NCBI GenBank assembly: GCA_013343275.1
Contig: CP046106.1
Location: 128,001-192,000, forward strand
DNA from: Candidatus Nanohaloarchaea archaeon
GTDB lineage: Archaea > Nanohalarchaeota > Nanosalinia > Nanosalinales > Nanosalinaceae
Direction of reading: 5' to 3'
DNA length: 64,000 bases
Part shown: piece after piece, positions 19,721 to 53,596 of the stretch
Numbering within the stretch: position 1 is the stretch's first letter
How the letters are laid out: every line of letters starts with the position of its first letter
Notes under the pieces: model-generated
Told to the model about the DNA's origin: nothing
The model's database searches: none
Seen by the model: only the letters and a program-made list of their open reading frames with translations
Translations under genes and position numbers: made by a program

Positions 19721-19722
19721 AC

Positions 19723-32246: not shown

Positions 32247-32253
32247 TATTTTT

Positions 32254-32520: not shown

Positions 32521-32987
32521 TACTTGGATACCTCTTCTTCGATTATCTCCATTATTTTTTCTGCATTATCCGCTTCAAGAAGTTTGTTGCGAACGTCTTC
32601 GTGTATAAGCGAGCGCGAGATACTACTGAGCACGTCCAGGTATTCGTCTTCAGTACCTTCCGGGAAGAGCAGCATGAAGAGCAGTCTTGCAGGTTCTCCA
32701 TCAGCTGCTCCAAAATTCACTCCGTTTTCAGCACGGATGAATGCTGCAGAAGGCTCCGTAACGGCCTCAGTCTTTGCATGAGGTATTCCAATCCCTTTGC
32801 CCACTCCTGTAGTGGCCTCTTCCTCCCTCTCTTTCAGGGCCTTCAGTGCTTTTTCCGTATCATTTATTTTGCCTTTCTGGTCTATAAGCTGTAGGAGGCC
32901 TTCTATTGCTTCTGTCTTGTTTTCGAAATCTCTGTCAAGTTCGATGGTTTCCGGTGATATGAGTGATTGAAGGGCTTTGCTGCTCAT
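32520..32987 (-). CDS. ptfA: PTS fructose-type EIIA
   Basis: REEEATTGVGKGIGIPHA. Confidence 0.92.
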   Translation of the reverse strand: MSSKALQSLISPETIELDRDFENKTEAIEGLLQLIDQKGKINDTEKALKALKEREEEATTGVGKGIGIPHAKTEAVTEPSAAFIRAENGVNFGAADGEPARLLFMLLFPEGTEDEYLDVLSSISRSLIHEDVRNKLLEADNAEKIMEIIEEEVSK

Positions 32988-33072
32988 ATGGTTATGGATT
33001 GGGTTCTGTACGGGTTTAAACTTTCCCTGGTAGGAGGGGTGAAAAAGAAAAATAAGAAAGGTATGGGTATTT

Positions 33073-34185: not shown

Positions 34186-34287
34186 TATAGTAACCCGTGA
34201 GAAAATTGCCTTCACTCCTATTTAAAATAAACTATTTAAACAGGTTTCTGTAGGGCCTTTTTTACCCTGTAGAACCAATAACAGGTT

Positions 34288-35193
34288 ATGATCCTTACCG
34301 TAACTTTCAATCCTGCAATAGACCACACATACGTAATTGACGAAGATCTGGAGAGCGAAAAGATTATGCGAACCAGCGAATCACATTTCGACGCCGGAGG
34401 AAAAGGTATCAACGTAGCCTCCTACCTGAATACTCTGGGTCACGACTCGCTGGCGACAGGCCTCCTCGGAGGATTTACAGGAGATTATATCCGAACGGAA
34501 CTGGACAGGGAAGGCCTGGCCCATGATTTCGCTGAGGGGGGAATCACAAGGATAAATACTACTGTAGCAGGCGATAATGAGGAGTACAAGCTGAACCATT
34601 CCGGTCCAGAGACAGGGGAAAAGGCCGTGGAACGTGTTCTGAGCAAGGTTTCCAGCAGAAGCCCTGGTAAAGTTGTGATATCTGGCAGTCTGCCTCCAGG
34701 CCTGGATAGCTCCGCGGTTGAGGAGATCGCTAGCGAAGTGGAGACAGATGTAGCAGTTGACCTTCACGGCGATGTGCTTGGAGAACTGGAGGAAAAGTAC
34801 TTTCTAGCGAAGCCCAACAGAAATGAGCTGTCCGAGGCAACAGGTATCGATATAGATAGCATACAGAAATGCAGAGAAGCTGCTGAAAAACTGCTTGATA
34901 GAGGGTTCGAGAACGTTCTGGCATCGATGGGAGAGGACGGAGCACTTCTGGTTACAGAGGAGAGAGCTCTCTATGCGGAAGGCCTTGACTCCGATGTAGC
35001 AGATACCACTGGTGCCGGTGATGCAATGCTTTCCGCAATGCTGGCAGGGTTAGAAGAGAATAAGGATAAAAAAGAAGCCTTCAGAAAGGCCCTGGCATTT
35101 GCTACTCTAGTAGTTGAGACTCCAGGAACAGGTAAGCCTGAAATAGAGAAAATGAATGATTATGTAGAAAGGGTTGAAGTTGAAGAGCTGTGA
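34288..35193 (+). CDS. pfkB: 1-phosphofructokinase (PfkB/FruK family)
   Basis: TVTFNPAID, AGGKGINVA, KPNRNEL, DTTGAGD; located in the PTS cluster. Confidence 0.92.
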   Translation: MILTVTFNPAIDHTYVIDEDLESEKIMRTSESHFDAGGKGINVASYLNTLGHDSLATGLLGGFTGDYIRTELDREGLAHDFAEGGITRINTTVAGDNEEYKLNHSGPETGEKAVERVLSKVSSRSPGKVVISGSLPPGLDSSAVEEIASEVETDVAVDLHGDVLGELEEKYFLAKPNRNELSEATGIDIDSIQKCREAAEKLLDRGFENVLASMGEDGALLVTEERALYAEGLDSDVADTTGAGDAMLSAMLAGLEENKDKKEAFRKALAFATLVVETPGTGKPEIEKMNDYVERVEVEEL

Positions 35194-35195
35194 TT

Positions 35196-35579
35196 TCAGG
35201 AGAACAGTTCCTTGATCTTCTTAACGAGCCCCATTGAGTTAGTATCGGACTTGTACTCTACATGTTCTTCTCTGTTCTCTTTAGCTTCCTTAACCTTATC
35301 TATTAACTCTTCTGCATCTGTTACTGCGGCCTGAACCTGTGTATGCAGGGAGGTCATATCCTCGAACCTCTCGGTATCTACAGAGATATCGGATGCAATA
35401 ATAGCTGCATCAGCCTCTTCGATATCTTCCTCGTTCAGGACGTTCTCGGTGCCTGAAGAACCATGAACTTCAACTTTTATCTCGTCGTCAGTACCTTCAA
35501 CTGCTTCTTCAAGGCTTTCCGCCGCCATCTGGCTGTGAGCGATACCGGTCGGGCACCCAGTAACTGCAACTAGCTTCAT
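35196..35579 (-). CDS. ptfB: PTS fructose-type EIIB
   Basis: VAVTGCPTGIAHSQMAAE. Confidence 0.94.
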   Translation of the reverse strand: MKLVAVTGCPTGIAHSQMAAESLEEAVEGTDDEIKVEVHGSSGTENVLNEEDIEEADAAIIASDISVDTERFEDMTSLHTQVQAAVTDAEELIDKVKEAKENREEHVEYKSDTNSMGLVKKIKELFS

Positions 35580-35614
35580 ATACTCCTACACTTCTCGGAG
35601 CTGGAATAAAAGCT

Positions 35615-36244
35615 TTACCGCCCGACGATCTCGAAAACCCTCTCACGCAACAGTTTCGGAGAGTCAACAACTTCATCCGCGTTAGAAGGCGCATCTCCCC
35701 CTGATTCAGAGTAACCTATACAGTAGAGGCCTGCACCTTTAGCCGAAGCAACACCGGCCTCAGTATCGTCAACAGCAACAGCATCCTCCGGATCAACACC
35801 TAGACTTTCTACCGCCATTCTGTAGGTCTCAGGCTCCGGCTTGCCCTTGCCATCCACATCACCGGAGTCAACAACTGCATCAAAATCCAGGTCAAACCTG
35901 TCAATCACGTAGCCAGGCCAGTAAGAACCTGTAGCAAGACCGATAAGAAGACCTAGATCTCGCAGCTCCTGAATAAACTCTTTCAGGCCTTCCATAAGTT
36001 CGGCCTTCTCACAGTAAACCTCTTCAGCCCTGCTCTCGTACATCTCAAAGAACTCTTCTCTGGAGACCTCTACATCGAAATCCTCACACAGCTTCTCGTA
36101 AGTATTTGTAATGCTCATGCCAGCAAGCCTGTCAGGATCAACTTCCGAACCTGTGGCCTCCCGGTAGATCTCTTTCTCTGCTCTATTCCAGTGTTTCTCG
36201 GTATCAACAACGACGCCATCCAGGTCAAAAATTACTGCCTCCAT
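35615..36244 (-). CDS. HAD-superfamily phosphatase (beta-PGM-like)
   Basis: IFDLDGVVVDT, GKPEPE, VDD; start moved to ATG 36244. Confidence 0.9.
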   Translation of the reverse strand: MEAVIFDLDGVVVDTEKHWNRAEKEIYREATGSEVDPDRLAGMSITNTYEKLCEDFDVEVSREEFFEMYESRAEEVYCEKAELMEGLKEFIQELRDLGLLIGLATGSYWPGYVIDRFDLDFDAVVDSGDVDGKGKPEPETYRMAVESLGVDPEDAVAVDDTEAGVASAKGAGLYCIGYSESGGDAPSNADEVVDSPKLLRERVFEIVGR

Positions 36245-36403
36245 AAAGTAAGAAACCGTGCAGCCGCAATAAAAATCTGGTATAAACACCGGCCTAACTT
36301 AATTCCAGGAAGCCTTTCCGAATCTAGAAATCCATTATTTCTCTACCTGCACCACTAACCTACAGAGGCCGGTTTTAAATAACTCTAAGCCCAATTAACT
36401 GGC

Positions 36404-37777
36404 ATGAAGAAGGCCTTGCTGCTGATAATAACGATTTTCCTGATTTCTATAACAGCAGCTTTTCCGGCCTCTCTGAAAGTTGTGGACCGTACAGCTTCTC
36501 CCGACGAACCTGCAAACTTCCAGGTTGAGATAAAGAATAATTACAGCACCGAGCAGTCCTTCCGTGTCTCACCTCATGCAGGAAACCTTGACTGGTTCTT
36601 CAACGACGGCCCTATAACACTTGATCCTTCTGAAAACGGCACAATCAATATTACTGTAACTCCTTCCGTAAATTCCTATCCTCATAACTGGCAGTTCGAT
36701 CTACGGGTCTGGATGACAGGCACAAACCGCTTCGAAATGCTCTCCAGCTACTACCGTGTCGAGAGAAGAGCCGAGCTTGAGGTAGTATCTACAGGCCTAC
36801 AGAAGAAATTTGTGAAGCCAGGCCATGAAAATAGTTTGAATATAACTGTCAGAAATCTGGGAACTGAAAGCCTTGAGGACTACAGTTTTGTTCTTAGCTA
36901 CATGAACAGGGCTGTGGAGAGAGGAGGAGAAACTCTCCTACCGGGAACCGATCAGAGAATGCCTGGCCAGAAGACTTACAGCTTTAATCTTGAAGTACCA
37001 GAAGGCACTCCTCCTGGAAACATAACACCGGTCCTGAAGGTAGTTTACGACAACAAGACCAGGGTCTACAACTACTCATTCCATGTTGAGAAAGTAACCA
37101 ACGTTTTCCGATTACAGAACGGTACTGACGGTGCCTGGGGTTTTACTAAAGAGCTTTACGCTGAAAACAGAGGAAATACCAAGGTTAACGTTACTTTTGA
37201 TGAAACTGTACCTGTCTACGTAACTCCATTCGTAGCTTACAGCGCTGAACCAGATGAGGTAGTTCACAGCCAGAGCAAAGCAACATATGTCTGGAAATAC
37301 GCGCTTTCTCCTGGTGAGGAAGCTACTGTACAGTACAGCGTGAACTACTGGATGCCGGCACTGATTGTACTGCTTATAGTTGCTGGGCTTGTAGCTCTGA
37401 AACGTTTGGGCAGCACAGCTACTATTACAAAGACAGCGCGGAAAGAAGACGGGATGGTTAAAGTAGGTATCGAGGTAAAGAATAATTCGGACAGAGTACT
37501 CAGCGACCTGGCTGTCGTCGACTTCGTACCTGATATAGCCTCCGTCTCACAGAACTTCAACGTTGCAACGCCAGAAATCCATAGAACAGGTGAAGGAACA
37601 AAGCTTGAATGGCGTATAGATTCTTTAAGGCCTGGAGAGGAGAGAGTATACGAGTACAGGATAAAGCCTAAGGTAGAGGTTGAAGGAGGAGCGACTTTAC
37701 AGCCTGCGGAGATCAAAAAAGGAGAAGAAACCCTTGCCCTATCCTCAGAGCGCTCAGTCGAGTTCAGCCCCGAGTAA
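36404..37777 (+). CDS. Secreted/membrane Ig-repeat cell-surface protein
   Basis: Signal peptide, many NxT/S sequons, a TM helix near residue 320, C-terminal DUF11-like domain. Confidence 0.75.
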   Translation: MKKALLLIITIFLISITAAFPASLKVVDRTASPDEPANFQVEIKNNYSTEQSFRVSPHAGNLDWFFNDGPITLDPSENGTINITVTPSVNSYPHNWQFDLRVWMTGTNRFEMLSSYYRVERRAELEVVSTGLQKKFVKPGHENSLNITVRNLGTESLEDYSFVLSYMNRAVERGGETLLPGTDQRMPGQKTYSFNLEVPEGTPPGNITPVLKVVYDNKTRVYNYSFHVEKVTNVFRLQNGTDGAWGFTKELYAENRGNTKVNVTFDETVPVYVTPFVAYSAEPDEVVHSQSKATYVWKYALSPGEEATVQYSVNYWMPALIVLLIVAGLVALKRLGSTATITKTARKEDGMVKVGIEVKNNSDRVLSDLAVVDFVPDIASVSQNFNVATPEIHRTGEGTKLEWRIDSLRPGEERVYEYRIKPKVEVEGGATLQPAEIKKGEETLALSSERSVEFSPE

Positions 37778-37822
37778 CCCACTTAAAGATTCGGTTGGTT
37801 AAAACAGTATACGGTTCTCACA

Positions 37823-37838
37823 CCCGACTTAGCTCAGT
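37823..37838 (+). repeat. 16-nt copy of the tRNA-Tyr 5' end
   Basis: CCCGACTTAGCTCAGT identical to 37884-37899. Confidence 0.85.
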
Positions 37839-37883
37839 GCGAAGCTGGAAAAAGCTTCTTGAAAGAGACTAAGATAGAGAACT

Positions 37884-37957
37884 CCCGACTTAGCTCAGTC
37901 TGGCAGAGCGGTCGACTGTAGATCGACTTGTCCCAGGTTCAAATCCTGGAGTCGGGA
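37884..37957 (+). tRNA. tRNA-Tyr(GTA), no intron
   Basis: C1-G72 acceptor CCCGACT/AGTCGGG, anticodon arm GTCGA-CTGTAGA-TCGAC, T arm CCAGG-TTCAAAT-CCTGG. Confidence 0.96.
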
Positions 37958-37965
37958 CTACCTTT

Positions 37966-38348
37966 CTATATAATCTCTTCTACAGGATTTCTTAGCACAA
38001 TTTTACCTACTGCTGCACCAATTAGCGCTCCAGCAATGACGTCAAACAGGAAATGCACTCCGAGATAGAGTCTGGAGAAACAGATCAGTGTCGCCATTGT
38101 GTACAGATACGGCCTTAACCCAGGTTTCCTACCTGAGAGAATTACTGCTAGTGTCCAGGCAACTGCCGAATGACCTGAAGGGAAGGAAGATGTGGTTGTG
38201 GATACTAGATGTTCTGCCAATTCAGGCCTGCTACAAGTAGAGCTGCGACGGAGAACGACGCCAGAGAAGTTACATTAGTGAAAAACTGGTTTAGCAGCGG
38301 GCTTCTCATGGCCTGTATAAGACCGTATTCTCCGGCGGCGTAGATCAT
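37966..38348 (-). pseudogene. PAP2-family phosphatase, internally deleted and frameshifted
   Basis: 5' frame MIYAAG...NVTSLAS...LLVAGL stops at 38205; 3' frame RPE...SFPSGH...SRLYLGVHFLFDV; frames switch at AGGCCT 38224-38229. Confidence 0.75.
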
Positions 38349-38364
38349 AAGTCTTTTTCCTCTT

Positions 38365-39501
38365 CTAGAAAGTGTTTATCTGGTTCTCCACGCATTTCTT
38401 GGTTATTTCATCGATACTGTCGAGATGTCTCTGGATTATTTCCTGGAATTCTTCTTTCTCTGCGGGTGTTTCGACCTCGATCAGCTTCGGGTCGTCTATC
38501 GGAGCCCCTATCTGTGAGAGCATCTTCACCTGAGCGTATTCTCCGGTCTCTTCGTGTATGCTTTTCGCTATCTCACGTGACAGCAGGTTGTAGATCTTCC
38601 CGACGTGGGTAACAGGGTTTTTACCGGAGGCAGCCTCCATGCTCATCGATCTGTGCGGTGTTATCAGGCCGTTAACACGGTTTCCTCTGCCAACCGATCC
38701 ATCGTCACCCATCTCTGCCGAGGTCCCTGTAACAGTCATGTAGATCTCTTCCTCCTCTATATCATCGGCTGTATTGACATGTACTTCGGGATCCAGGCCG
38801 TTCTCACGCGCCTTTCTCTCGGCAACATCTCTCACGTTTTCGATATGGTTTCTGTAGTCATCCATGGAACCGGTTCGTGAGGAAATTGCTGGAGCTGCAA
38901 CAGTAAGAGTTATGCCCTCGCCCTGTCTCAAACCCATGACTTTCACGTCCTCTCCGCACTGATCAAGCTGTCTAACACCTTTCTCCACCTGCTTCACGGT
39001 TTTCTCTGCCGGTGAGAGAGGTGCGTGGCCTACGCCAAAGCTGGTGTCGTTCGACATTCTCTGTTCTCTCTCGTAGACTGCTGCCAGATCAGTAGACGTC
39101 TCTCCAATCCGGGACTTGAACTCTATTTGCGAAGGATCCAGGGCCTTGAAATTATCTTCAATATACTCTTTCGCGGCGTCCAGCGCTATCTTGTCGACGG
39201 GAATCTCTTCACCTTCAAACTGCTTCGTCGCACGGCCTGTCAACAGAATAAAGATAGGTTCTATAACTTCTCCACTATTGAACTCTGGATTGGACTCTCC
39301 AGCTACCAGCTGGGCCTCGTCTGTGTTGTGATGCAGTATGTGGCCGAATCTGTCTCTGTACTCTCTGGAGAGCTCGCGGGAGATCTTCTCGGCGATGCCG
39401 TCGCAGATGCTGTCTGGATGGCCAAGCCCTTTCCGCTCTACCAGTTCTACTTCTCTGTTTTTGACAGGGTCTGACTGTGTCTCGGTTCTTGAGATATTCA
39501 T
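38365..39501 (-). CDS. mat: Archaeal S-adenosylmethionine synthetase
   Basis: [42 protein letters not shown]. Confidence 0.96.
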
Positions 39502-39541
39502 GTTGAGTACTGGTCTCTGTGGTTTCAATAATCTAGTGGTC

Positions 39542-40177
39542 TCAGAGGTTTTCTTCACGGTATTCTTCAGGTAATTCAGGCCCTTCATCCTCTTCCTCGA
39601 AAGGCATGAACCGGACCGGAGAGTGATCTGTTATCTCGCCTTTCTCGTACTTCCGGAGAACCTGTCCGTGATCCACGTAGACCGGTGCAACGATGATTCC
39701 ATCCTCGGTAAGATGTCTGCGTGCCTCATCGAAAGAGTCGATAGCACAGGAGTACAGTATCCTGTCGAATTCACCTTCTACAGGATTGAAACCGTTTCCA
39801 TGGAGAATTTTTACGTTGTCGTAATCCAGTCTCTCACGGGAGTTCTCGATTACTTCCTCGATGATGTCTACTCCGATAACCTCTCCATCTGTCAACTCGG
39901 CAAGTAGAGCTACCTGGTACCCGGAACCGGAACCAATCTCAATCACTCGATCATTTTCCCCGACATCCAGCAACTCAGTGTTCTCCGCGATAACACTGGG
40001 CTGAGAAGTCACTGAACCGCCGGCTATCGGCAGAGGAGTATCAGCATAGGCCTTATCTTTATGCGGCTCAGGGACAAAATCCTTCCTGTCCACGTTCCTG
40101 AAGGCCTGCTCCACTCTATCCGACTCTATAATACCTCTTTCAACCAGACGGTCAACCATCTCATCGTTAGACTCCAT
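39542..40177 (-). CDS. pcm: Protein-L-isoaspartate O-methyltransferase
   Basis: AYADTPLPI, SQP, EIGSGSGYQ, VRFMP. Confidence 0.9.
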   Translation of the reverse strand: MESNDEMVDRLVERGIIESDRVEQAFRNVDRKDFVPEPHKDKAYADTPLPIAGGSVTSQPSVIAENTELLDVGENDRVIEIGSGSGYQVALLAELTDGEVIGVDIIEEVIENSRERLDYDNVKILHGNGFNPVEGEFDRILYSCAIDSFDEARRHLTEDGIIVAPVYVDHGQVLRKYEKGEITDHSPVRFMPFEEEDEGPELPEEYREENL

Positions 40178-40264
40178 AAAAGGCCTTATTCTGGGCCTAG
40201 AGTTTTCAGTTTTGTGACCGGGGATAGAACGCGGAGAAGTTAAGAAAAAAGGAAAGAGAGGATT

Positions 40265-40777
40265 CTATTCCAGCTTGCTGTCGATACTCTGAAGGAGCTT
40301 CCTTATCTCTTTCAGTTCCTGAAGCTGTTCGTCTGAGCCGGTTTCTTTCTTACCGGTGCTCTGGCCTTTCTCCTTTTTCAGGTGTCTGTTGATGATCTGT
40401 TCGACCTCTCGCGGGTTGTCGATGCTGTTGAAACGCATCTCGACTCCCTGACCTCCAGCAGTGGAGATTTCGATATTTCCGTAGTCGAAGTAGCTGCCGA
40501 GGACTCCCTGACTGAAGCTGATGTTCTGTACCTTGTCGAAACCGATCTTCTGCACGTTACGCGAGAGAACACCGGACTTCCTGTAAAGGCCTTGATCGGT
40601 AACCACGAAGTACGTGTTTTTGACGCTGTAGTAAGCGCCAACGATAATCGCAATACCGATAAGGAACGGAATCAGCGGAATACCGACGATAACAGCTGGC
40701 AAAATGCTTTTGATACGAGGCTGGCCCTGCCACAGAACCTCCTCATCATCGTCCAGATTAACCCAGTCAACTGACAT
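40265..40777 (-). CDS. Membrane protein with bacterial PH (bPH_2) domain
   Basis: TM hairpin; KVQNISFSQG...YGNIEISTAG. Confidence 0.82.
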   Translation of the reverse strand: MSVDWVNLDDDEEVLWQGQPRIKSILPAVIVGIPLIPFLIGIAIIVGAYYSVKNTYFVVTDQGLYRKSGVLSRNVQKIGFDKVQNISFSQGVLGSYFDYGNIEISTAGGQGVEMRFNSIDNPREVEQIINRHLKKEKGQSTGKKETGSDEQLQELKEIRKLLQSIDSKLE

Positions 40778-40820
40778 AACAGAAAAATATTCGAGAGAAA
40801 GAAAAATTAAACTAACGGCC

Positions 40821-41438
40821 TCACTCCTCTATAATACTGGAGGCCTTCTCAATCTCATACTCTACAATGCCGTGATTGGACCCTTCCATAATGTACTTCT
40901 CGATCTCTCCGTTCAACTCCTCTAAAACTTTCTCAGTGGCGTTAACTCTTTCAAGAGGGATGTGAGGATCGTTATCAGAACAGCCGATGAACACAGGGGT
41001 CTCTTCCAGGTCACCGCTGAAATCTCCGATCTCTTCTCCAATAAGGCCTCCGCTGAACAGGATCGCTCCGCCGTATCTGTCAGGATTCGATGCTGTATAC
41101 TCTGAGGCCAGGCAGGCTCCCTGAGAGAAACCAAGGAGATATACGTTGTCTTTTCCAACTTTTTCAGAGGCCTTCTCTACCAGCGTGTCTACTTTGCGCA
41201 GTGCGGAGTCCAGATGCGGTTGATTTTTCTCCCGTGGCTCAAGAAAGCTGTGGGGATACCAGGTCCTGCGAGAGGCCTGAGGAGCAAGATACGCTGCCTC
41301 AGGAAGCTGTTCGGAAAGCTGGATCATTCCTCCTGCGGAAGCGCCACGACCGTGAAGCATGATAACGGCCTTTTCCGCTTCCTTCAGATCAAGGCCTGCG
41401 GTCTGTACCGGTTGATCTTCGTGTATCTCTTCTGTCAC
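40821..41438 (-). CDS. Phospholipase/carboxylesterase (alpha/beta hydrolase)
   Basis: LHGRG, GFSQGA, D and H of the triad. Confidence 0.9.
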   Translation of the reverse strand: MTEEIHEDQPVQTAGLDLKEAEKAVIMLHGRGASAGGMIQLSEQLPEAAYLAPQASRRTWYPHSFLEPREKNQPHLDSALRKVDTLVEKASEKVGKDNVYLLGFSQGACLASEYTASNPDRYGGAILFSGGLIGEEIGDFSGDLEETPVFIGCSDNDPHIPLERVNATEKVLEELNGEIEKYIMEGSNHGIVEYEIEKASSIIEE

Positions 41439-42364
41439 TGGTTGATCTCCTCCTCTCTGAACTCTGGAAGGTTCTCTAGAATCTCCTCTCTACGATCCTG
41501 AAGCTCTTCAGGCAGCACGAAGTTTGTTCCGAGCTCCTCTACAGACTCATCTGCGGTATAGCCAGGCCCCATGGTGGAGAACTCGAAGAGAACTCCGGTA
41601 GGCATCCGGCAGTAGATCGAGGAGAAGTACTTCCTGCTGATAACTGGTGATGGCTGAAGGCCGATTCTCTGCAGTTGATCTCTCCATTTCTCGAGTTCTT
41701 GCTCGCTTTCTGCAGCTTTAAACGCGGTGTGGTGGACACTGCCTCGGCCCATCCTGCCGTGTTCAGAAGTCTCGATTATCTCAACTCCAGAACCATCTTC
41801 TGCCTCGTAGTAAGTATCTTCAAGGCCTTTAATCTCTTCCAGATCCATTATATCAAGTACTTTCTCCAAGTCCTCAGAGCTGTGGGCCTGTACTGTTACG
41901 TGGTGCATTCCACGGATCTGGTTTTCTTCTGGAACAGTGCTGTCGGGCCATGGCGTGTAGTCTTCGGTATCTTCCGGGATCAGTCGAAGTGAGAGGCCGT
42001 CAGGGTCTTCAAAACTTAGAGTTTCTTTCCCATGCCATTTTTCATTTTCAAAGTCGAGGCCTTCATCTTCCAGTCTATCTTTCCAGTAATCTACTGAGTT
42101 CTCGGGTATTCTGAGGCCTAGCTCTGTGATCATTCCGGCGCCGGGCTTTCCTTTTTGCTGGGCCATTCCGGGGAAGAATGTTACGCTGGTGCCGGGGGAG
42201 CCTTCTCTGTCGCCGTAGAATAGGTGGTACATCTCCGGTGCGTCGTGGTTGACAGTTTTCTTGACCATGCGGAGGCCTAGAGTGTTTACGTAGAACTTGG
42301 CGTTTTCTGTTGGGTCGCCTGCGATCGCTGTGAAATGGTGGAGGCCTTTAACTTCTGGTGTCAT
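41435..42364 (-). CDS. Ring-cleaving dioxygenase/glyoxalase (MhqO-like)
   Basis: GLHHFT, LGLRMVKKTVNHD, VHHTAF, RKYFSSIY, LFEFST. Confidence 0.9.
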   Translation of the reverse strand: MTPEVKGLHHFTAIAGDPTENAKFYVNTLGLRMVKKTVNHDAPEMYHLFYGDREGSPGTSVTFFPGMAQQKGKPGAGMITELGLRIPENSVDYWKDRLEDEGLDFENEKWHGKETLSFEDPDGLSLRLIPEDTEDYTPWPDSTVPEENQIRGMHHVTVQAHSSEDLEKVLDIMDLEEIKGLEDTYYEAEDGSGVEIIETSEHGRMGRGSVHHTAFKAAESEQELEKWRDQLQRIGLQPSPVISRKYFSSIYCRMPTGVLFEFSTMGPGYTADESVEELGTNFVLPEELQDRREEILENLPEFREEEINQ

Positions 42365-42424
42365 AATGTTATCTGGTTTGAAAACGAACCATTAAATAAA
42401 GTGAAGGGACACAGGTGTAACCAC

Positions 42425-42763
42425 ATGCAACAGGAAAACGCTGGGCCGTGCTCGATAGTCGAATCGTTCGACATGATTGGCTCGAAATGGAAACTGATAG
42501 TACTCAACGACCTGCAGGGCGGAGAGAAAAGGTTCAACCAGCTGAAGAGATCGACAGAGGCCTCCTCGAGGACGCTTTCACGTGTACTTCAGAACCTGAA
42601 GGGTGAAGGCCTTGTAGAGAAAAGAGTCGAAGATGGAAACCCGGTAGCAACTTTTTACTCGTTGACCGAGGCCGGAAAATCGCTGTGCCCGGTATTCGAA
42701 GAGATAGAGGACTGGGCTGATGAATGGCTGAACGAGGCAGAAATTAAAAATTCGGAGGCCTGA
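42425..42763 (+). CDS. HxlR-family transcriptional regulator
   Basis: PC..., IGSKWKLIVL, KRFNQL, YSLTEAG; divergent from the dioxygenase. Confidence 0.9.
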   Translation: MQQENAGPCSIVESFDMIGSKWKLIVLNDLQGGEKRFNQLKRSTEASSRTLSRVLQNLKGEGLVEKRVEDGNPVATFYSLTEAGKSLCPVFEEIEDWADEWLNEAEIKNSEA

Positions 42764-42772
42764 AACTTTTTC

Positions 42773-43339
42773 ATGAACTTCAAAGAAAAGTACTCAGATT
42801 TCTTCGAAACACTGCATCCGAACTACTGGGACGAGGACCGGTTCGTACCGGCGGTAGGCCCGGAAGACGCGGATGTAATGATGATAGGCGAGGCCCCGGG
42901 AGCGAACGAAGTGGAGGAAGGAGAGCCTTTCGTCGGAAGAGCTGGAGAACGACTCAATGATATACTTCACGATATCGATGTTGATCGGGACGAAATCTAT
43001 ATTACCAATCTGGTGAAGATCAGGCCTCCTGACAACCGCGATCCGAAAAGCGATGAGATCGAGGCCTGGGCACCGCTTCTCGAACAGGAAATCGAGAACG
43101 TCGAGCCGGATATAATCGTGACTCTGGGGAACTTCGCATCCAAGCACATGCTCGATACTTCCAAAGGAATCAGCAAGATTCACGGCCGGATATTCACACG
43201 TGAGGGCCAGAAAATCATGCCGGTATACCATCCGGCAGCAACACTGTACGACCGATCTAAAGGCCCGGAACTTGAGAAAGACCTGAGAAAGGCCTTTGGG
43301 AAAGAAGAGTCTGGTCAGAAGAAGTTCACTGATTTCTAG
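42773..43339 (+). CDS. udg: Uracil-DNA glycosylase family 4
   Basis: GEAPGANE, PFVGRAG, HPAA. Confidence 0.9.
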   Translation: MNFKEKYSDFFETLHPNYWDEDRFVPAVGPEDADVMMIGEAPGANEVEEGEPFVGRAGERLNDILHDIDVDRDEIYITNLVKIRPPDNRDPKSDEIEAWAPLLEQEIENVEPDIIVTLGNFASKHMLDTSKGISKIHGRIFTREGQKIMPVYHPAATLYDRSKGPELEKDLRKAFGKEESGQKKFTDF

Positions 43340-43378
43340 GCCGGAAAATACTTCAGACTTCCCACCTTAACTTTCACT

Positions 43379-43567
43379 ATGGTAGGGTCGCCTTATCAGG
43401 GCCGTGAAAGTATAGAGAAACTTGTCCAGGAGGAAGAGCTACCGGACCTGTCCGATTTCTCATACAGGGAAGGCCTAAGTGGCGATAGAGATATAATCTA
43501 TGAGGAAGACAGTATGAAGGCCTGGCTTTCGGCAGAGTACTCTCTCGATCTGTCGGAGGAGCTGTAG
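43379..43567 (+). CDS. Small hypothetical protein
   Basis: 62 aa acidic ORF; C-terminal AWLSAE...DL. Confidence 0.55.
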   Translation: MVGSPYQGRESIEKLVQEEELPDLSDFSYREGLSGDRDIIYEEDSMKAWLSAEYSLDLSEEL

Positions 43568-43609
43568 AGCCTTCTCCATTCTAAAAGTTTAGTAACCTAA
43601 AAATACTCT

Positions 43610-44476
43610 ATGAAGAAGTACAAACCTATAATCGATGACTGGGATGCCTTCAAGGCAGAATCAGACGAGCATCCGGTTAACGCTGTCAGAAAAAACCCGC
43701 TGAAGGCAAAGGAAGACTTCGAGGAGAAACTTGCTGAGAGATTTCAATATGAGAAAGCAGACTGGGCCGATGGAATCTACAGGCTCGATACGGAATCCCC
43801 GGGGAAAAGCCTTCTGCACTGGAGAGGAGAGTACTATGTACAGGAGGAATCCGCAGCCCTACCTATAGAAGTACTGGATCCAAAGCCCGGAGAAAAAGTA
43901 CTTGACATGTGCGCCGCACCTGGGGGAAAAACCACTCAGATAGCTGCAAAAATGAATAATAAAGGCCTTGTAGTAGCAAACGATGAATCCAGCCAGCGAA
44001 TGAAAAGCTTGCACGCCAACGTCTACAGGACAGGCTCAGCTATTGTAGACGCCACCAACTACGATGCCCGAAGGCTACCTGAGGAGAAATTCGACAGAAT
44101 ACTTGTCGATGCACCCTGTTCGGGTGAAGGAGATCGTTTCTACGAAACATTTACAGCTATCGATGAGCAGGACTCCCGTGACCTGGCCAAGCTACAGTTT
44201 CAGATACTGGAAAAGGCCTCACAGATGATCAGAGAAGGAGGAACGGTTGTCTATTCCACATGTACTATCAGCCCGATTGAAAACGAGGGAGTGGTACAGA
44301 GAGCTGTAGATGAGACAGAACTGGAACTTAAAGAGATCGAAACCAGTATACCGCACGTAGAAGGGGTAGACTCTTTCGAGGATCTTGATTACGATGCTGA
44401 TATGAGCAAATGCGTCCGCGTATATCCACATCACGTTAATTCAGGGGTGATCTTCGTTGCAAAACTTGAGAAGTAA
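43610..44476 (+). CDS. RsmB/NOL1/NOP2 RNA m5C methyltransferase
   Basis: DMCAAPGGKT, DAPCSG, YSTCT, ENE. Confidence 0.95.
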   Translation: MKKYKPIIDDWDAFKAESDEHPVNAVRKNPLKAKEDFEEKLAERFQYEKADWADGIYRLDTESPGKSLLHWRGEYYVQEESAALPIEVLDPKPGEKVLDMCAAPGGKTTQIAAKMNNKGLVVANDESSQRMKSLHANVYRTGSAIVDATNYDARRLPEEKFDRILVDAPCSGEGDRFYETFTAIDEQDSRDLAKLQFQILEKASQMIREGGTVVYSTCTISPIENEGVVQRAVDETELELKEIETSIPHVEGVDSFEDLDYDADMSKCVRVYPHHVNSGVIFVAKLEK

Positions 44477-44891
44477 AGGATACCGCTATCTGGAGGACAG
44501 GTTTGGAATAGAGGAAGGCGATCTTGAGAGCCTGGAGCTTGTAGAGCGGCATGATGATCTGTGGCTGGCCTCGGAAGAGGAAACAGGTTACGACGCCGAG
44601 ACTCGAGGGATAAGAGCGCTTCGGGATACCGGTATTGGCCTTAAACCCACGACTTATCTGTTGCAGCAGCTAGATGAGAAAATTGAGAAAAATATCGTTG
44701 ACCTGACGGACGAAGAGTTCAAGGATCTGCTGGCCAGGGAAAACATGATTGACAGAGAACTGAGTGAGGGAGGATACGTGGCCCTGAAATATGGTTCAAG
44801 GATCGTAGGCTGCGGTTTCTACAAGAACGAGAAGGTCTCCAGCAGGATTCCCAAAGGCCGCTCAAAAGAACTTCTGAAAGCGCTTTTCTAG
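44457..44891 (+). CDS. Methyltransferase-associated PUA/NIP7-like protein
   Basis: YLEDRFGI, GIRALR, KPTT, SRIPKGR; overlaps the m5C MTase gene; start uncertain. Confidence 0.7.
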   Translation: MQNLRSKGYRYLEDRFGIEEGDLESLELVERHDDLWLASEEETGYDAETRGIRALRDTGIGLKPTTYLLQQLDEKIEKNIVDLTDEEFKDLLARENMIDRELSEGGYVALKYGSRIVGCGFYKNEKVSSRIPKGRSKELLKALF

Positions 44892-45130
44892 TGTCCGTCG
44901 CCTGAACTATCGATTATAGCTTCCAGAATATAGACGACGAGTAACAGGCCTGTCAGCTGCGCTGCAATTATCTCAGGAGTGGTGGATATCTGGAGCAGGT
45001 TAGTGGAGCCGTAACCCTGGTTCTTCAGAAGCATAAAGTCGTAGCCAAGGACGGCAACTGTCATTATATCTACAACTGTAGATCCCTCAATCTTTTCCCG
45101 AAGACCTCCGCCACTACTACCGTAACTCAT
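44888..45130 (-). CDS. Small membrane protein
   Basis: 80 aa with two hydrophobic stretches. Confidence 0.55.
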   Translation of the reverse strand: MSYGSSGGGLREKIEGSTVVDIMTVAVLGYDFMLLKNQGYGSTNLLQISTTPEIIAAQLTGLLLVVYILEAIIDSSGDGH

Positions 45131-45194
45131 AGTTTCAGATTTCGAGGCCTGAAATAAATAAGCTACCTGTCTCTAACTCCAGGCCCTCTTTACC

Positions 45195-45203
45195 TATATA
45201 AAA
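45195..45203 (+). promoter_or_regulatory. TATA box of the 5S rRNA gene
   Basis: TATATAAAA about 25-30 nt upstream of the 5S start. Confidence 0.6.
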
Positions 45204-45226
45204 GTTACAGTCTGTATTTTTGCATA

Positions 45227-45339
45227 CTGGCGGCCATAGCGAGGGGGCAACACCCGTACCCATTCCGAACACGGAAGTAAAGTCCCTCAGCGATCGCATC
45301 AGTACTGCCTTTTCGGCGGAAGCGTGCGGACGCTGCCAG
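45227..45339 (+). rRNA. rrf: 5S rRNA (stand-alone)
   Basis: CTGGCGGC/GCTGCCAG helix I; CACCCGTACCCATTCCGAACACGGAAGTAAAG; AGTACT loop E. Confidence 0.93.
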
Positions 45340-45403
45340 ACTATTTTTACCTTTCGTTTCTCCGATCGAAAGAGTTAATTACTTCTTCTGTGAAGACACT
45401 GTC

Positions 45404-46090
45404 ATGATCTCTGCTCTTGAGGACGCAGTCAGGGGATACTGGCCCTATAAAATCTCTACTGTACTTGTTCTGCTGATTCTCTTCTTCGGGTCTGTAATGG
45501 TGATGGATCAGAGGATTGATGCTAACTCTGATGCTGCGATCGCAAATGTAGAAGTAACAGCAAACCTTTCCGCAGTATACGCATTCCAGCACTACTATAA
45601 CAGTACCAATCAATCTCAAAACGTTCAGAAGATGCAGGGTTTGAGAGAGGATACTCTGGACAGCTCCCAGACTGTCAAGAGAGGAAAAGTTTACCAGGCG
45701 GCGCTTTTTACTGGGTTTGCAATAAAGCAGATAGATCCCTTTTACCGTGTTCCCTGTCTAGAAACCTCAGACGGCTGTATATTCTATTTAGATAAGAGCG
45801 TCAGGCAGGAAATTAGTTCCATACTTGATAAGTCGGGCTCGGAGCAGTTTCTCAGAGATTTCGCAGACAACTATAACTTGACTGTTGAAGAACGGTTCTA
45901 CAACAAGTACTCCAGAAATAACACTGGGACTCCAGGAAGTTTCGGTGCATCATTGCTGGAGAAAGGCTCTGGGAAAGAACTGGATGCTACAACTTTCACA
46001 GTTAATGCCCTCTACCTGGCTATACTTGGACTAATTATCTCAACTTTTGCTGCATTCCTGCGAGAGATGATTAAAGGTGATAGAAGCTGA
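45404..46090 (+). CDS. Membrane protein with extracellular domain
   Basis: N- and C-terminal TM helices; NxS/T sequons. Confidence 0.7.
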   Translation: MISALEDAVRGYWPYKISTVLVLLILFFGSVMVMDQRIDANSDAAIANVEVTANLSAVYAFQHYYNSTNQSQNVQKMQGLREDTLDSSQTVKRGKVYQAALFTGFAIKQIDPFYRVPCLETSDGCIFYLDKSVRQEISSILDKSGSEQFLRDFADNYNLTVEERFYNKYSRNNTGTPGSFGASLLEKGSGKELDATTFTVNALYLAILGLIISTFAAFLREMIKGDRS

Positions 46091-46521
46091 GTAAGCTCAC
46101 TTCGTGGATTCTCTGGAAGGGAGAAAATATTGGGGCAAAAATTCTCTCTAAGTTTCTGTGGCCGCCGGCAGCAGCACACACAGTAGTAATCAGAGATGGA
46201 AGTTTACTGGCTGTGAATACTGGAGAGTACCTCATGCTGCCAGGAGGCCTTCTTGACGCAGGAGAAAGCTTTGAGGATGCAGCAGTCAGGGAGACAAGAG
46301 AGGAAACAGGCCTGGAGATCGAACTGAGAAATGAAATAAAGATAGAGCGTAGAGAAGGCCTAGGGCCTGCAGCTTTCTTCACTGCAGATGTGGCTGGTGG
46401 AGAAATGCAGGGGTCGTGGGAAGGAGAACCGTGCTGGGTTCCTCTGGAACAGGTGGAAGATCACCGGTGGCGTTACAACAGGGATATGCGCTCGCTTATC
46501 GATGAAGCAGAAACCAGATGA
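46087..46521 (+). CDS. NUDIX hydrolase (probable CTG start)
   Basis: LPGGLLDAGESFEDAAVRETREETG; frame open back to 46084; GGTGA SD before CTG 46087. Confidence 0.8.
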   Translation: MSKLTSWILWKGENIGAKILSKFLWPPAAAHTVVIRDGSLLAVNTGEYLMLPGGLLDAGESFEDAAVRETREETGLEIELRNEIKIERREGLGPAAFFTADVAGGEMQGSWEGEPCWVPLEQVEDHRWRYNRDMRSLIDEAETR

Positions 46522-46555
46522 AACTGGTAAATAAGTTGACACCAATCTCTGCAAC

Positions 46556-47419
46556 ATGGTAACAACTCAAGGCCTGAGGGCCAATGGTAAAATCTTTCTA
46601 CTCATATCAGTACTTACAGGAGTATTCCTCGGCGCCGGATACCTTCTAGGCGGTACAGGAGGCATGATTATAGGCCTTCTGATTGCAGGAGTAATGAATA
46701 TCGCAAGCTACTGGTTCTCCGACCGTATCGTACTCAAGATGTACGGCGCTGAAGAGATAAAAGAGGAGGAAAACCCTGAAATACACCAGATGGTTGAAAA
46801 ACTGGCCTCTAACGCTGGCATACCGAAACCAAGAATCTACAGATCCTCCATGCAGGTGCCGAACGCCTTCGCAACAGGAAGAAACCCGGAAAAAGGCGTA
46901 GTATGCGTAACCGACGGCCTCATGAACTCTCTAAATCAGGAGGAAATCGAAGGAGTAATCGCCCATGAACTGGCCCACATCAGGAACCGCGACACATTAA
47001 TCAATACAGCAGTTGCAACAGTTGCCGGAGCACTAGGCTTCCTGGCAGAAATGGCTTTCTGGGGAGCAATGTTCGGAGGCCGAGAAGAAGACGGAGAAAT
47101 GATCTCCGCACTCGCATTAATGATCATCACTCCGCTGATAGCTACAGTTATCCGGCTGGCAGTATCCAGAAGCATGGAGTATAGGGCCGATGCCCACGCA
47201 GTACAGATACACGGCCAGAAACAAGGTCTTTCCTCAGCACTAAAAAAGATAAACAGGGCGAGCTCCGGGCCTCAAAGGAGGCACGTTAACCGTTCGCAGG
47301 AGGCCGCTGCAAACCTGTTTATAGAAAATCCTTTCTCCAGCCACGGCATAACCAAATGGTTCTCAACGCACCCTGCGCTCCACGACAGGCTGAAGAACAT
47401 CGAGAAGACTGAACTATAA
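46556..47419 (+). CDS. htpX: Zinc metalloprotease HtpX
   Basis: PNAFATG, AHELAH, SRSMEYRAD, STHP. Confidence 0.95.
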   Translation: MVTTQGLRANGKIFLLISVLTGVFLGAGYLLGGTGGMIIGLLIAGVMNIASYWFSDRIVLKMYGAEEIKEEENPEIHQMVEKLASNAGIPKPRIYRSSMQVPNAFATGRNPEKGVVCVTDGLMNSLNQEEIEGVIAHELAHIRNRDTLINTAVATVAGALGFLAEMAFWGAMFGGREEDGEMISALALMIITPLIATVIRLAVSRSMEYRADAHAVQIHGQKQGLSSALKKINRASSGPQRRHVNRSQEAAANLFIENPFSSHGITKWFSTHPALHDRLKNIEKTEL

Positions 47420-48198
47420 TGGCAGGGATCGCTGGCAACATCAACAGAACCTCGGACGCCTGGAAAGCAGATTACTGGGACAGAGTCGATCAGGTAGAGG
47501 ATGAGACAGGCCTGGACTTCTCTGAGTCTATAGACGATATCGAGAAAAAGGAGATGCCAGCGTTGGCCTCAATGGAGAAAAGAACGTACAGTATCGACGG
47601 CCAGGAATACGACCGCAACGTACTGAACATAAGCAACACCTTCGACTACCTCAACCCGGAGCTACAGCAGCACGTTCTTTCGCATGAAGGTATCCATGCA
47701 CTGGATTTCGAAAATGAACTTGTTCCACAGCTAGAGGCCTCGAGAAATATTTCTCCGGATGCAGCCCAGAGAATTTCTGTTCTGAAAGATCAGGGCCGTG
47801 ACAGGAAGGAAGGAGTTACTCAGGCCATCAACAAGAGGATTGCTCCGGATGCCAGCTCCCATTACTTCTACCCTGATGAAACCCGTGAAGTAGAGCAACT
47901 GCTCGAACAGAATGGAACAGATCTCGACTCAGAACTTCTAGAGGAGACGCAGAGTCTGGAAGAAGATATTGTAGATGCATACCGCGAAATAGATGCTCAG
48001 GTATCAGCGCCAGGTCTCTACTTCGAGTACGGTTCTTTCAACGGTACTGATTACAGCGTGATGGTGCTTGGAGAAGATGCAGAGGCCTATGGAGGAAATC
48101 TTACCGATGACTACCTGCTTGATGAGGAGAAGGGTCTTACGGATCTCGATTACGATGAGTTTGTTGATGCTGATCTGGAGAAGTATGATCTGGATTAG
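47419..48198 (+). CDS. Hypothetical zincin-like protein
   Basis: LSHEGIH ... EGVTQ; TAATG-coupled to htpX. Confidence 0.65.
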   Translation: MAGIAGNINRTSDAWKADYWDRVDQVEDETGLDFSESIDDIEKKEMPALASMEKRTYSIDGQEYDRNVLNISNTFDYLNPELQQHVLSHEGIHALDFENELVPQLEASRNISPDAAQRISVLKDQGRDRKEGVTQAINKRIAPDASSHYFYPDETREVEQLLEQNGTDLDSELLEETQSLEEDIVDAYREIDAQVSAPGLYFEYGSFNGTDYSVMVLGEDAEAYGGNLTDDYLLDEEKGLTDLDYDEFVDADLEKYDLD

Positions 48199-48228
48199 AA
48201 ATGAAGAAAAGAAGAGGTATGAAGGCCT

Positions 48229-49197
48229 TTAGAGTGTTGTGTGTTCTCCGATTACTGCGTCGTTGATGTCCATGTCGTCGATTTCTGATTTCTGGTCGAT
48301 GATTGAGTTCCGGATGTCGGAGTTCTTGATGGTGGCCTCTGGGAATATGATTGAGTTCTGTACTTTTGCGTTTTCCAGTTGAACTCCTTCCATGATGAAA
48401 ACGTTGTCTCCGACTTCCGAGTTCTTTACACTGTCCGCGTTGTTGATACTTCCGTCAACTACTGTCTCGAATGCGTCAAGGTATCCGCGTGGCGTTCCCA
48501 CGTCGAACCAGTAACCGTCGAAGCTGAACGCGTAGGTAGGTGTCTGATTGTGCGCCCATTCAATAAGCCGGCCTGGCTCATCCAGGTACTGGTCTGCCGG
48601 AACATCTGTCTGCTTGAAATGCTGTTCGTACTCTTCGAAAAGAGAGACCTTGTCCTGTGGGAAGTAGTAGACCGCGATCGATCCCAGTGTTGAAGGCGGG
48701 TTCTCAGGTTTCTCAACGAAATCCATGATCTGATCGCCTTCAAGATCCACGACACCGATGCTTTTCGCGATCTCTTCGTCCTTCACATCGAATACAACAT
48801 TCGCCGGAGCATCTTTTTCACGGCAGAAATCCAGGAACTCAGATGTATCAAAGCTGTAGATATTGTCTCCGCCGATAACAACCAGGTCATCGTCAAGGCC
48901 TTCCTTCTCGATCAAGTTGATGATCGCACCGATAGTACCGGGCTTCTCCTCCTCAGAGTCCTGATTCTCGACAACTACTCGAGCATTCCTATCGTACTCC
49001 TCAACATAGTCTTCGAAATCCCCGGCGAATTTCTCGTTCGTCGAGATAATAGTCTCGTCAACCTCCTCATCCAGATCCTCAAGAATATAGTCAATTATAG
49101 GTTTTTCCTCTCCAAGAGGCAATAACGGCTTTGCACGGTCCTTGGTAATAGGCCACAAACGAGTAGCATGGCCTCCAGCAAGCACAATAGCTTTCAT
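48229..49197 (-). CDS. Sugar-1-phosphate nucleotidyltransferase
   Basis: LAGGHATRLWP...KPLLP, EKP, WFDVG; C-terminal beta-helix. Confidence 0.92.
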   Translation of the reverse strand: MKAIVLAGGHATRLWPITKDRAKPLLPLGEEKPIIDYILEDLDEEVDETIISTNEKFAGDFEDYVEEYDRNARVVVENQDSEEEKPGTIGAIINLIEKEGLDDDLVVIGGDNIYSFDTSEFLDFCREKDAPANVVFDVKDEEIAKSIGVVDLEGDQIMDFVEKPENPPSTLGSIAVYYFPQDKVSLFEEYEQHFKQTDVPADQYLDEPGRLIEWAHNQTPTYAFSFDGYWFDVGTPRGYLDAFETVVDGSINNADSVKNSEVGDNVFIMEGVQLENAKVQNSIIFPEATIKNSDIRNSIIDQKSEIDDMDINDAVIGEHTTL

Positions 49198-49342
49198 ACG
49201 TAATACAACGTAATACCAACTTAAATATCTCTGCCGAATCTTCAGAAAAGATTCGAGTCAAAGTAATTTTTACTCAATTCTGCGAGCTCGGGTAAACGCA
49301 CCGACCAAAAGACAGAAACCAGTAACTATCGAAGGCCTTCAC

Positions 49343-50428: not shown

Positions 50429-50435
50429 AGATATT

Positions 50436-51413: not shown

Positions 51414-51498
51414 ACAGAAAAAGAAGTAGTTGAAATCTTTTAATCCCATCTGCACTTTCAGAAGGCAGCTGGTTAAAAAATTAACAATCTCTGGCTTG

Positions 51499-52152: not shown

Positions 52153-52191
52153 TTCTTCTAGAACCCTTCAACTAATTCGGGGCCAAGGCTT

Positions 52192-52872: not shown

Positions 52873-52982
52873 ACTACTTGGTAAGGCACGTAAAGCTTTA
52901 ACTTCTGACGATTAATCTCGGCGACTTCATCGAATGGTTTTTACCTTTTGAGAAGTATAACGTGGCTAAGGTGGAATAAGTT

Positions 52983-53589: not shown

Positions 53590-53596
53590 ATCGTTC

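Follow-up and report, generated by a model that had tools for sequence, protein, structure and literature searches.

A hyper-abundant, frame-blind AGGCCT palindrome in one clade of Nanohaloarchaeota

Introduction

Highly iterated palindromes (HIPs) are known from cyanobacteria, where HIP1 (GCGATCGC) is hyper-abundant in all reading frames and between genes. Uptake signal sequences (USS, Pasteurellaceae) and DNA uptake sequences (DUS, Neisseriaceae) are nonpalindromic words of 9-12 nt that are tied to ComEC and type IV pilus uptake and are proposed to accumulate by molecular drive, and Chi is a short, over-represented and oriented word that has been proposed as a mark of "self" DNA. Among restriction enzymes, StuI is specific for AGGCCT, and HaeIII and NgoPII for GGCC. 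The present work concerns the hexamer AGGCCT in a stretch of 64,000 nucleotides (hereafter the window, meaning the whole stretch) from the genome of a Candidatus Nanohaloarchaea archaeon (contig CP046106.1, positions 128,001 to 192,000), for which an earlier note, made from the letters alone, had proposed an archaeal analog of HIP1.

The analogy holds for the pattern: AGGCCT is hyper-abundant and frame-blind, occurs in non-coding DNA as well, is hyper-conserved and is missing from DNA acquired recently. The methylation-directed mechanism that came with the analogy is not supported. Like HIP1, AGGCCT is a palindrome of very high abundance that occurs within genes in every frame and in intergenic DNA, is better conserved among relatives than the background (Xu et al., PMC5861425), has one-off variants biased to the outer positions (Elhai, PMC4390886), and has been lost from some sublineages; HIP densities are about 500-2500 per Mb according to Elhai (PMC4390886). 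On the other hand, it is a 6-mer and not an 8-mer, is enriched 9-19-fold rather than 15-300-fold, is archaeal, and comes with no cognate methyltransferase and no MutS that could be found with the Pfam models used in the genomes searched. The 10-90-kb periodicity described for HIP1 (Xu et al. 2018, PMC5861425) was not found for AGGCCT with a simpler periodogram. The alternative hexameric HIPs GGCGCC (Calothrix PCC 7103) and rCCGGy (Oscillatoria PCC 10802) resemble AGGCCT in being GC-rich palindromic top hexamers, sporadic among relatives and of comparable density (PMC4390886). A word-specific methyltransferase accompanies every frequent alternative HIP according to Elhai (PMC4390886), whereas a companion of AGGCCT was sought with the same Pfam models and not found. 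Whether biased repair, selection or participation in gene transfer accounts for palindrome-swamped genomes is still debated (PMC4390886, PMC5861425, PMC13756078, 10.1101/2024.09.10.611283), and no report of AGGCCT in nanohaloarchaea was found among the literature matches listed. The cause of genome-swamping palindromes has been an open question since HIP1, and the case described here comes not from cyanobacteria but from archaea whose genomes measure about 1 Mb.

Results

The genome containing the window, G000, is a single contig of 915,886 bp with 956 genes and 87% coding sequence, as called by a simple codon-usage open reading frame (ORF) caller and not by curated annotation; its proteome is strongly acidic (E 11.4%, D 7.2%), and its RpoB' shares 78-94% identity with RpoB' from records titled Candidatus Nanohaloarchaea, Nanohalobium and Nanosalina. 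It was compared with two congeners (G001, 800 of 1047 kb covered; G002, 131 kb), with a member of another genus (G008, 160 kb) and with a word-poor relative (G015, about 979 kb). The features that first bear on the abundance of the word are as follows.

1..64000: whole window, 152 AGGCCT, part of 1803 genome-wide
40841..42761: sampled stretch, 13 AGGCCT across three ORFs (40821-41438, minus strand; 41435-42364, minus strand; 42335-42763, plus strand)
41435..42364, minus strand: example gene, 309 aa, seven listed sites within its coordinates, including 41823, 42057, 42114, 42273 and 42342

The 13 copies that the earlier note had counted by hand in the sampled stretch are confirmed, and all ten positions quoted there are correct; the three it did not quote lie at 42057, 42558 and 42607. 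Across the window the density is 2.4 per kb, and none of 100 dinucleotide-preserving shuffles reached the observed count (mean 18.5, standard deviation 4.8, largest 30). Genome-wide the word occurs once per 508 bp (1969 per Mb), which is 9.2 times the zero-order expectation from base composition and places it first of 4096 hexamers; the second-ranked palindrome, CTGCAG, stands at 2.8-fold, and most palindromes are at or below 1. The density in the G008 sample is higher still, at 3.96 per kb (about 4000 per Mb), or 19 times the expectation.

The occurrence of the word in different frames and between genes, also claimed earlier, is borne out by the whole genome, in which 230 copies are read AGG|CCT, 510 xAG|GCC|Txx and 844 xxA|GGC|CTx, and 200 lie outside genes versus 20 expected. 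When synonymous codons were permuted within each gene, so that the protein sequence and the gene's codon usage were preserved (n = 100), only 51, 112 and 190 sites per frame were obtained (total 353, standard deviation 17.5, maximum 399) against 1584 observed, an excess of about 4.5-fold in each frame with z about 70. The disappearance of the enrichment under correction for codon-pair and dipeptide usage had been named as the outcome that would refute the HIP-like reading; the enrichment persists when amino-acid sequence and codon usage are corrected for, and the reading is not refuted. Expressed as occupancy, AGGCCT fills 230 of 448 Arg-Pro, 510 of 1067 [EKQ]-Ala-[CLFSYW] and 844 of 1596 x-Gly-Leu contexts of G000 (51, 48 and 53%), whereas about 9-10% would be expected from codon usage; summed over frames, occupancy is 0.595 in G001, 0.55 in G002, 0.73 in the 160-kb sample of G008 and 0.09 in G015. 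The occupancy method does not itself create an excess, because the same script returns the codon-usage expectation for G015 (41, 128 and 75 sites versus 40.8, 108 and 74). At the level of a single codon, Gly is encoded by GGC in 75% of cases in G000 when A precedes and CT follows, and in 27% otherwise. In 33 kb of strictly non-coding DNA of G000, defined by the lack of any stop-free stretch of at least 80 codons in any frame, there are 62 copies versus 4.8 expected (12.8-fold), compared with 11 of TCCGGA, the reversed control word. A Markov model of maximal order does predict the count (3611 expected, 3606 observed on both strands), but this says only that enrichment is already present in the pentamers AGGCC and GGCCT, whatever the frame and outside coding DNA too. 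An artefact of composition, codon usage or dipeptides is rejected by the synonymous shuffles, by the non-coding excess and by the G015 control. The force acts on the DNA itself and is blind to reading frame and coding status.

Comparison of G000 with the 800 kb of G001 (507,539 bp aligned at 78% nucleotide identity, four-fold sites 0.486 identical) shows that AGGCCT is the best conserved of the 1974 hexamers with at least 100 aligned copies, 664 of 1032 copies (64%) being retained versus 26.6% overall. Non-coding copies behave likewise (54 of 82 conserved; 14 of 22 in the strict set versus 0.44). At positions where both genomes are permissive, the probability of a site in G001 is 0.80 given a site in G000 and 0.40 given none (underlying counts 605/147/259/388). 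Copies of AGGCCT are therefore retained to a much greater degree than would be expected of several synonymous positions changing independently, and new copies arise readily wherever the protein allows; the positions are interchangeable, because 40% of permissive G000 positions without the word carry it in G001. Protein sequences are affected as well, in that peptides able to encode the word are more frequent: over 172,046 residues aligned between G000 and G015, [EKQ]A[CLFSYW] occurs 677 versus 507 times and xGL 1003 versus 813 times, and the reversed-peptide controls give 496/467 and 788/824, respectively.

The anatomy of the word differs between genera. In G000, GGCC is 1.61-fold over its trinucleotide expectation and AGGCC a further 1.29-fold; GGCC flanked by neither A nor T stands at 0.3-1.0-fold, with one of the two at 2.4-3.1-fold, and with both at 9.2-fold. 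The remark in the earlier note that other GGCC variants are common is thus true of the one-sided forms AGGCCV and BGGCCT (2.4-3.1-fold), but not of GGCC without either flank (0.32-1.0-fold). One-off variants of G000 follow the same line, those at the word's first or final position (NGGCCT type) reaching 2.4-3.1-fold and those at inner positions 0.47-1.58-fold, with none conspicuously depleted. In the G008 sample, unlike in G000, the outer one-off variants, or half sites, reach only 0.7-1.9-fold, GGCC flanked by C or G falls to 0.14-0.24-fold, the flank odds ratio is 6.3, and AGGCCT accounts for two thirds of all GGCC. The full palindrome is the unit in G008, and the window's genus has a relaxed, pentamer-wise version of it. 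Outside the word only the adjacent base is biased in G000 (A 37% at -1, T 38% at +1), and the extended word AAGGCCTT reaches 20-fold. Flanks beyond +/-1 are at background, so the word is not a repeat element, and a dispersed repeat family is rejected. Relative to genes, half sites of G000 number 1781 in the sense (AGGCC) and 940 in the antisense (GGCCT) orientation; this bias follows gene orientation only, with no replichore switch in 50-kb bins. AGGCCT in the window's genus shares with Chi the character of a short over-represented word, with a pentamer as its unit, but there is no orientation switch along the chromosome, and a Chi-like oriented word is rejected. The deamination products AGGTCT (1.58-fold) and AGGCTT (1.25-fold) are not depleted in G000, and Vsr was found in none of five genomes (0/5), by which very-short-patch-type repair is rejected.

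Along the genome of G000 the density per 5 kb is close to Poisson (variance/mean 1.28), and occupancy is uniform, near-binomial across genes (chi2/df 1.18 over 845 genes). No spacing periodicity (helical, histone-scale or large-scale) beyond 3 bp was detected in G000, and in a periodogram of 1-kb bins, a method simpler than that of Xu et al., the best peak reached 0.69 of the 95% bin-shuffle level. Sites seldom lie within 50 bp of each other, with observed/expected ratios of 0.34 for spacings of 6-20 bp and 0.70 for 21-50 bp, yet the probability that a context at 21-50 bp is occupied when its neighbor is occupied is 0.43 versus 0.42; the short-gap deficit mostly reflects lower occupancy where permissive contexts cluster, rather than mutual exclusion of neighboring sites. 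Long site-free gaps are few, and the third largest of the genome lies in the window, in an integrated element (1-12456) composed of the following parts.

1021..6557, minus strand: element backbone, with a HerA-like ATPase (1021-2499; PF05872, E 1.1e-5) and an MCM-family helicase (4251-6557; PF00493, E 1.2e-28)
6776..12455: site-free element cargo, 5.7 kb, GC 0.37-0.38, with an AbiTii-domain gene (9139-9930, minus strand) and six ORFs without Pfam match

The drop-out of the word in foreign-looking cargo was correctly seen earlier: there is no AGGCCT from 6770 to 12456 (GC 0.37-0.38), and the backbone (1-6775) holds 18 sites in 6.8 kb, which is native density. AGGCCT separates the backbone of a resident element from recently acquired cargo. 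The element also has a small winged-helix protein at native AGGCCT density, and just upstream of the window (genome 123395-124831) is a protein that by eye resembles a tyrosine integrase with zinc-ribbon motifs. Elsewhere in the window, a cluster at 32520-35193 (genome 160520-163193) looks by eye like a fructose-type phosphotransferase system (PTS), with a IIA-like protein, a IIC-like membrane protein and a 1-phosphofructokinase-like protein; it has a counterpart in G001, and none was found in G015. None of the eight permissive contexts of the IIC-like gene is occupied (0/8, the lowest of any gene, p = 0.003), which suggests, because of this zero occupancy, that the gene was acquired late.

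Across the phylum, 13 of 70 species genomes are rich in the word, with AGGCCT outnumbering the reversed control word by a factor of at least 4.3, and the other 57 reach at most 1.6 times. By genus, the rich genomes comprise 3/3 of g1, 3/3 of g7, 5/5 of g26 and 2/6 of g2; within g2, G003 and G060 are rich, and G059, G061, G062 and G063 are poor at the same GC. In an RpoB' tree of 37 genomes (a single gene, with rich G042 and G050 not included), all 11 included rich genomes fall in one clade with support 100/99, together with six poor genomes (the four of g2, G005 and G015), and the fewest state changes on this tree are three. Five site positions in rpoB' recur among the word-rich genera; one or two of these persist in three of the six poor members of the clade, and four genomes outside the clade keep none. 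The simplest reading is that the trait was gained once, at the base of the clade, and lost at least twice thereafter. GC content is rejected as the cause because poor genomes share the GC range of rich ones: at the rpoB locus, rich genomes have 0.45-0.51, except for the weakly rich G040 (0.41), and poor members of g2 have 0.46-0.52, although the poor G005 and G015 inside the clade are higher (0.56-0.575 at this locus; G015 0.57 genome-wide). Of 37 nanohaloarchaeal rpoB loci in public records, 8 are rich (2.5-3.9 per kb). The record L249, titled Nanohaloarchaea archaeon SG9, is one of them, and the record L209, under the title Candidatus Nanosalina sp. J07AB43, is not. As the genomes are related, none of these rich/poor counts consists of independent observations.

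Among the most word-depleted relatives, G018 (73 AGGCCT versus 491 of the control word) carries a M.HaeIII-like C5 methyltransferase (PDB 1dct, E 2.9e-96) directly beside an endonuclease of the NgoPII family (PF09521, E 7e-73), and the pair is likely to be a GGCC restriction-modification system.

G018:C1:265821-269774 (L001), minus strand: putative restriction-modification locus, ORFs 1456-2469 and 2474-3355

G054, also depleted (97 versus 344), has a similar enzyme of 338 aa. The avoidance expected of a restriction target is seen in G018 with its HaeIII/NgoPII-like pair, and G000 shows the opposite sign, namely enrichment. Compared with palindrome avoidance under restriction-modification, AGGCCT thus involves the same GGCC family of words in the same archaeal family, but with the sign reversed and in rich genomes that lack the HaeIII/NgoPII-like system. 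Abundant AGGCCT predicts strong restriction barriers towards relatives carrying GGCC systems.

The search for a cognate machinery relied on Pfam models, and absence of a family means that it was not found with the models used. C5 methyltransferases (PF00145) gave no match in G000, G001, G002, G003 or G008. Among the five rich genomes searched, the N4/N6 family PF01555 exceeded its cut-off in G001 alone, and strong PF02384 matches were confined to G001 and G003. The Dam-type PF02086 was found in none of five genomes (0/5). The PF02384 match of G000 is weak and falls in an ORF whose weak matches (E <= 0.001) recur in most of the rich and poor genomes searched, and nothing of DNA-methyltransferase grade was found in G000 or G008 with these three models; in these two complete rich genomes no DNA methyltransferase of the C5, N4/N6-beta, gamma or Dam type was found. 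A motif scan of G000 for [DNS]PP[YFW] returned five proteins, all with homologues in the poor G015. MutS (PF00488) was found in none of 31 genomes of the order (0/31), in which control families were matched, and NucS/EndoMS is present in 5/5 genomes tested, rich and poor alike, lying near rpoB in G000 (G000:35220-35534). The methyltransferase co-occurring with the word that had been suggested as a target for phylogenetic profiling did not emerge, PF00145 being present in 1 of 13 rich genomes versus 15 of 37 others in the family, and together with the results for G000, G008 and MutS this leaves methylation-directed repair unsupported.

Discussion

A force at the level of DNA, blind to frame, creates and retains AGGCCT in one clade, has been lost repeatedly, and is not accompanied by a recognizable DNA methyltransferase or MutS. 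Our reading, held tentatively and with a confidence somewhat short of even, is that AGGCCT is a HIP-like or uptake-sequence-like word of one Nanohaloarchaeota clade, kept through molecular drive by a symmetric DNA-recognizing process. Such a process would create AGGCCT wherever proteins tolerate it and would protect existing copies, filling about half (window's genus) to about three quarters (g7) of synonymous opportunities. The agent would be a two-fold symmetric factor recognizing double-stranded DNA, a proposal made because the palindrome is strict in G008, and its action may bias which allele survives repair, recombination or DNA exchange, so that biased repair, gene conversion or exchange would amount to a drive. 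This drive would resemble that proposed for uptake sequences and would differ from selection on each of roughly 2000-4500 sites; unlike the proposal for cyanobacterial HIPs, it would involve no resident classical DNA methyltransferase with MutS/MutL, and sublineages that lost the agent would have decayed to background. Molecular drive is more likely than selection on each site, because occupancy is equal in the three frames and in non-coding DNA, its spread is near-binomial, positions are interchangeable and peptide usage is bent. Several of these traits are shared with USS and DUS, which are likewise short words spread evenly in all frames and between genes, bend peptide usage, are missing from recently acquired DNA and form "dialects" between related lineages (here a strict hexamer in g7 and a relaxed one in g1). 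AGGCCT is, on the other hand, shorter than USS and DUS and symmetric, and its six palindromic bases hold little information for discrimination.

A number of observations weigh against this reading. The first concerns the word itself, since the A and T flanks are statistically independent in the genus of G000 (odds ratio 0.99-1.04), and the enriched unit there is for this reason the pentamer AGGCC/GGCCT and not the hexamer; pentamer-wise enrichment fits a process acting per strand and weakens the argument for a symmetric dimer in G000. Second, purifying selection and a drive that prevents loss as well cannot be told apart with these data, and the conservation of 0.80 is evidence of the type used by Xu et al., who took hyper-conservation of HIP1 as evidence for selection (PMC5861425). 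Third, ComEC (PF03772) was found in none of 50 genomes (0/50; controls matched 10/14), and therefore a bacterial-type uptake route is not present. Fourth, G000 may be in net decay, with the agent weakened or gone in G000 itself: a three-way comparison of G000, G001 and G002 over 50 kb gives 30 sites lost in G000 versus 14 in G001, and 18 sites private to G000 (gains at most) versus 37 private to G001, these being small numbers from a crude parsimony at this divergence and with no outgroup for G002. Finally, no agent was found. The candidate list holds 133 G000 proteins with a match in G001 and none in G015 and contains false positives from assembly gaps; five DNA-related genes picked by eye were tested across genomes, ten more, those shared with the G008 sample, were read by eye, and ten others were run on Pfam. 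None of the five tested genes follows the rich/poor pattern, no clade-specific DNA-binding protein was found among the candidates profiled, and Pfam returned nothing DNA-specific for the ten further candidates; a 20-kb DNA query across genera used blastn only, which is too insensitive for profiling.

The five tested genes are distributed as follows. A Y-family polymerase occurs in G003, G005 and G012 and was not found in the rich G008, the AlkA-like glycosylase has an orthologue only in G003, and a ParB-like protein is missing from G003 though present in G008, G005 and G012. The small winged-helix protein g0754 is in 41 of 50 genomes, and the orphan g0088 (898 aa) is in 48 of 50, which exposed the assembly-gap false positives of the list. 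The polymerase lies in the window:

49343-50428, plus strand: Y-family DNA polymerase, DinB/Dpo4-like by eye, also not found in G015

Selection acting on each site or on site density, through a chromatin, segregation or "self"-marking protein that binds AGGCCT, is doubtful but has to be taken seriously. It is in keeping with the reading of HIP1 by Xu et al. as a selected word with a function in nucleoid structure (PMC5861425), and it would account for hyper-conservation both in genes and between genes, for the strict palindrome of G008, for the rarity of close pairs, and for the native density that extends to the resident mobile element. However, selection per site would be very weak over about 2000-4500 sites in small-population symbionts, yet occupancy reaches 0.5-0.73 against codon usage, and 40% of the permissive positions left empty by G000 are filled in its congener. 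There is neither a periodicity beyond 3 bp nor a large-scale peak, the short-gap deficit is mostly a matter of locally lower occupancy, the trait has been lost at least twice without visible genome upheaval, and the profiling described above found no clade-specific DNA-binding protein.

It is also conceivable, though rather unlikely, that AGGCCT copies are methylation-independent "self" words, in which a symmetric factor would bias repair, recombination or cell-to-cell exchange and so generate a drive by which the word spreads until it fills most synonymous opportunities and alters peptide usage, with the GGCC-cutting systems of sister lineages acting as barriers between word-rich and word-free populations. 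If true, archaea would have in AGGCCT their first equivalent of HIP or uptake sequences, one that comes with natural loss-of-function congeners.

A methylation-linked HIP in the sense of Elhai appears improbable. It would require a GGCC or AGGCCT methyltransferase of unrecognized family, host- or virus-borne or recently lost, together with a methyl-dependent repair bias that ratchets near-sites towards the word. One-off variants are indeed enriched only at the outer positions (2.4-3.1-fold versus 0.5-1.6-fold at inner ones), as in HIP1; hexameric alternative HIPs with a cognate methyltransferase do exist, for example GGCGCC in Calothrix (PMC4390886); GGCC-type restriction-modification systems circulate in the same family; and trans-cellular methylation has been reported for a nanohaloarchaeon with its host (PMC11001535). 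On the other hand, PF00145 gave no match in the five rich genomes named above (0/5) and is the rarer among rich genomes generally, the matches to PF01555 and PF02384 are confined to one or two of the five and PF02086 has none, the [DNS]PP[YFW] proteins of G000 all have homologues in a poor genome, MutS and Vsr were not found (0/31 and 0/5 genomes), and the deamination products of the word are not depleted. That the word is a side effect of composition, of codon usage, of bias in dipeptides or codon pairs, or of a dispersed repeat family is hardly credible, for although the Markov expectation equals the count, the sense strand favors AGGCC over GGCCT, and the purine-rich coding strand raises AG and GA dinucleotides, the Markov equality reflects pentamers that are already enriched, the enrichment persists equally in three frames with protein sequence and codon usage fixed, it is 12.8-fold in stop-rich non-coding DNA and absent in relatives of the same GC, with G015 at its codon-usage expectation, and flanks beyond +/-1 are at background.

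That no methyltransferase or MutS was found, though the leading model needs them, implies either that the model is not general or that there is a new route of modification. The coexistence of rich and poor species at the same GC within genus g2 turns the search for the agent into a small problem of comparative genomics, and in word-rich genomes AGGCCT is a sharp marker of native versus newly acquired DNA.

Other features of the window and its surroundings

Upstream of the window, the 898-aa acidic orphan (L188:5939-8635; genome 80939-83635) without Pfam match, conserved in 48 of 50 family genomes, adjoins a 531-aa coiled-coil protein (79340-80935), the two forming a family-wide orphan pair. 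The RNA genes of the window are the following.

45226-45341: 5S rRNA gene, the window's only rRNA match
21554-21628, 37884-37957 and 53501-53589: three tRNA genes

The tRNA at 21554 begins two bases after an AGGCCT at 21552.

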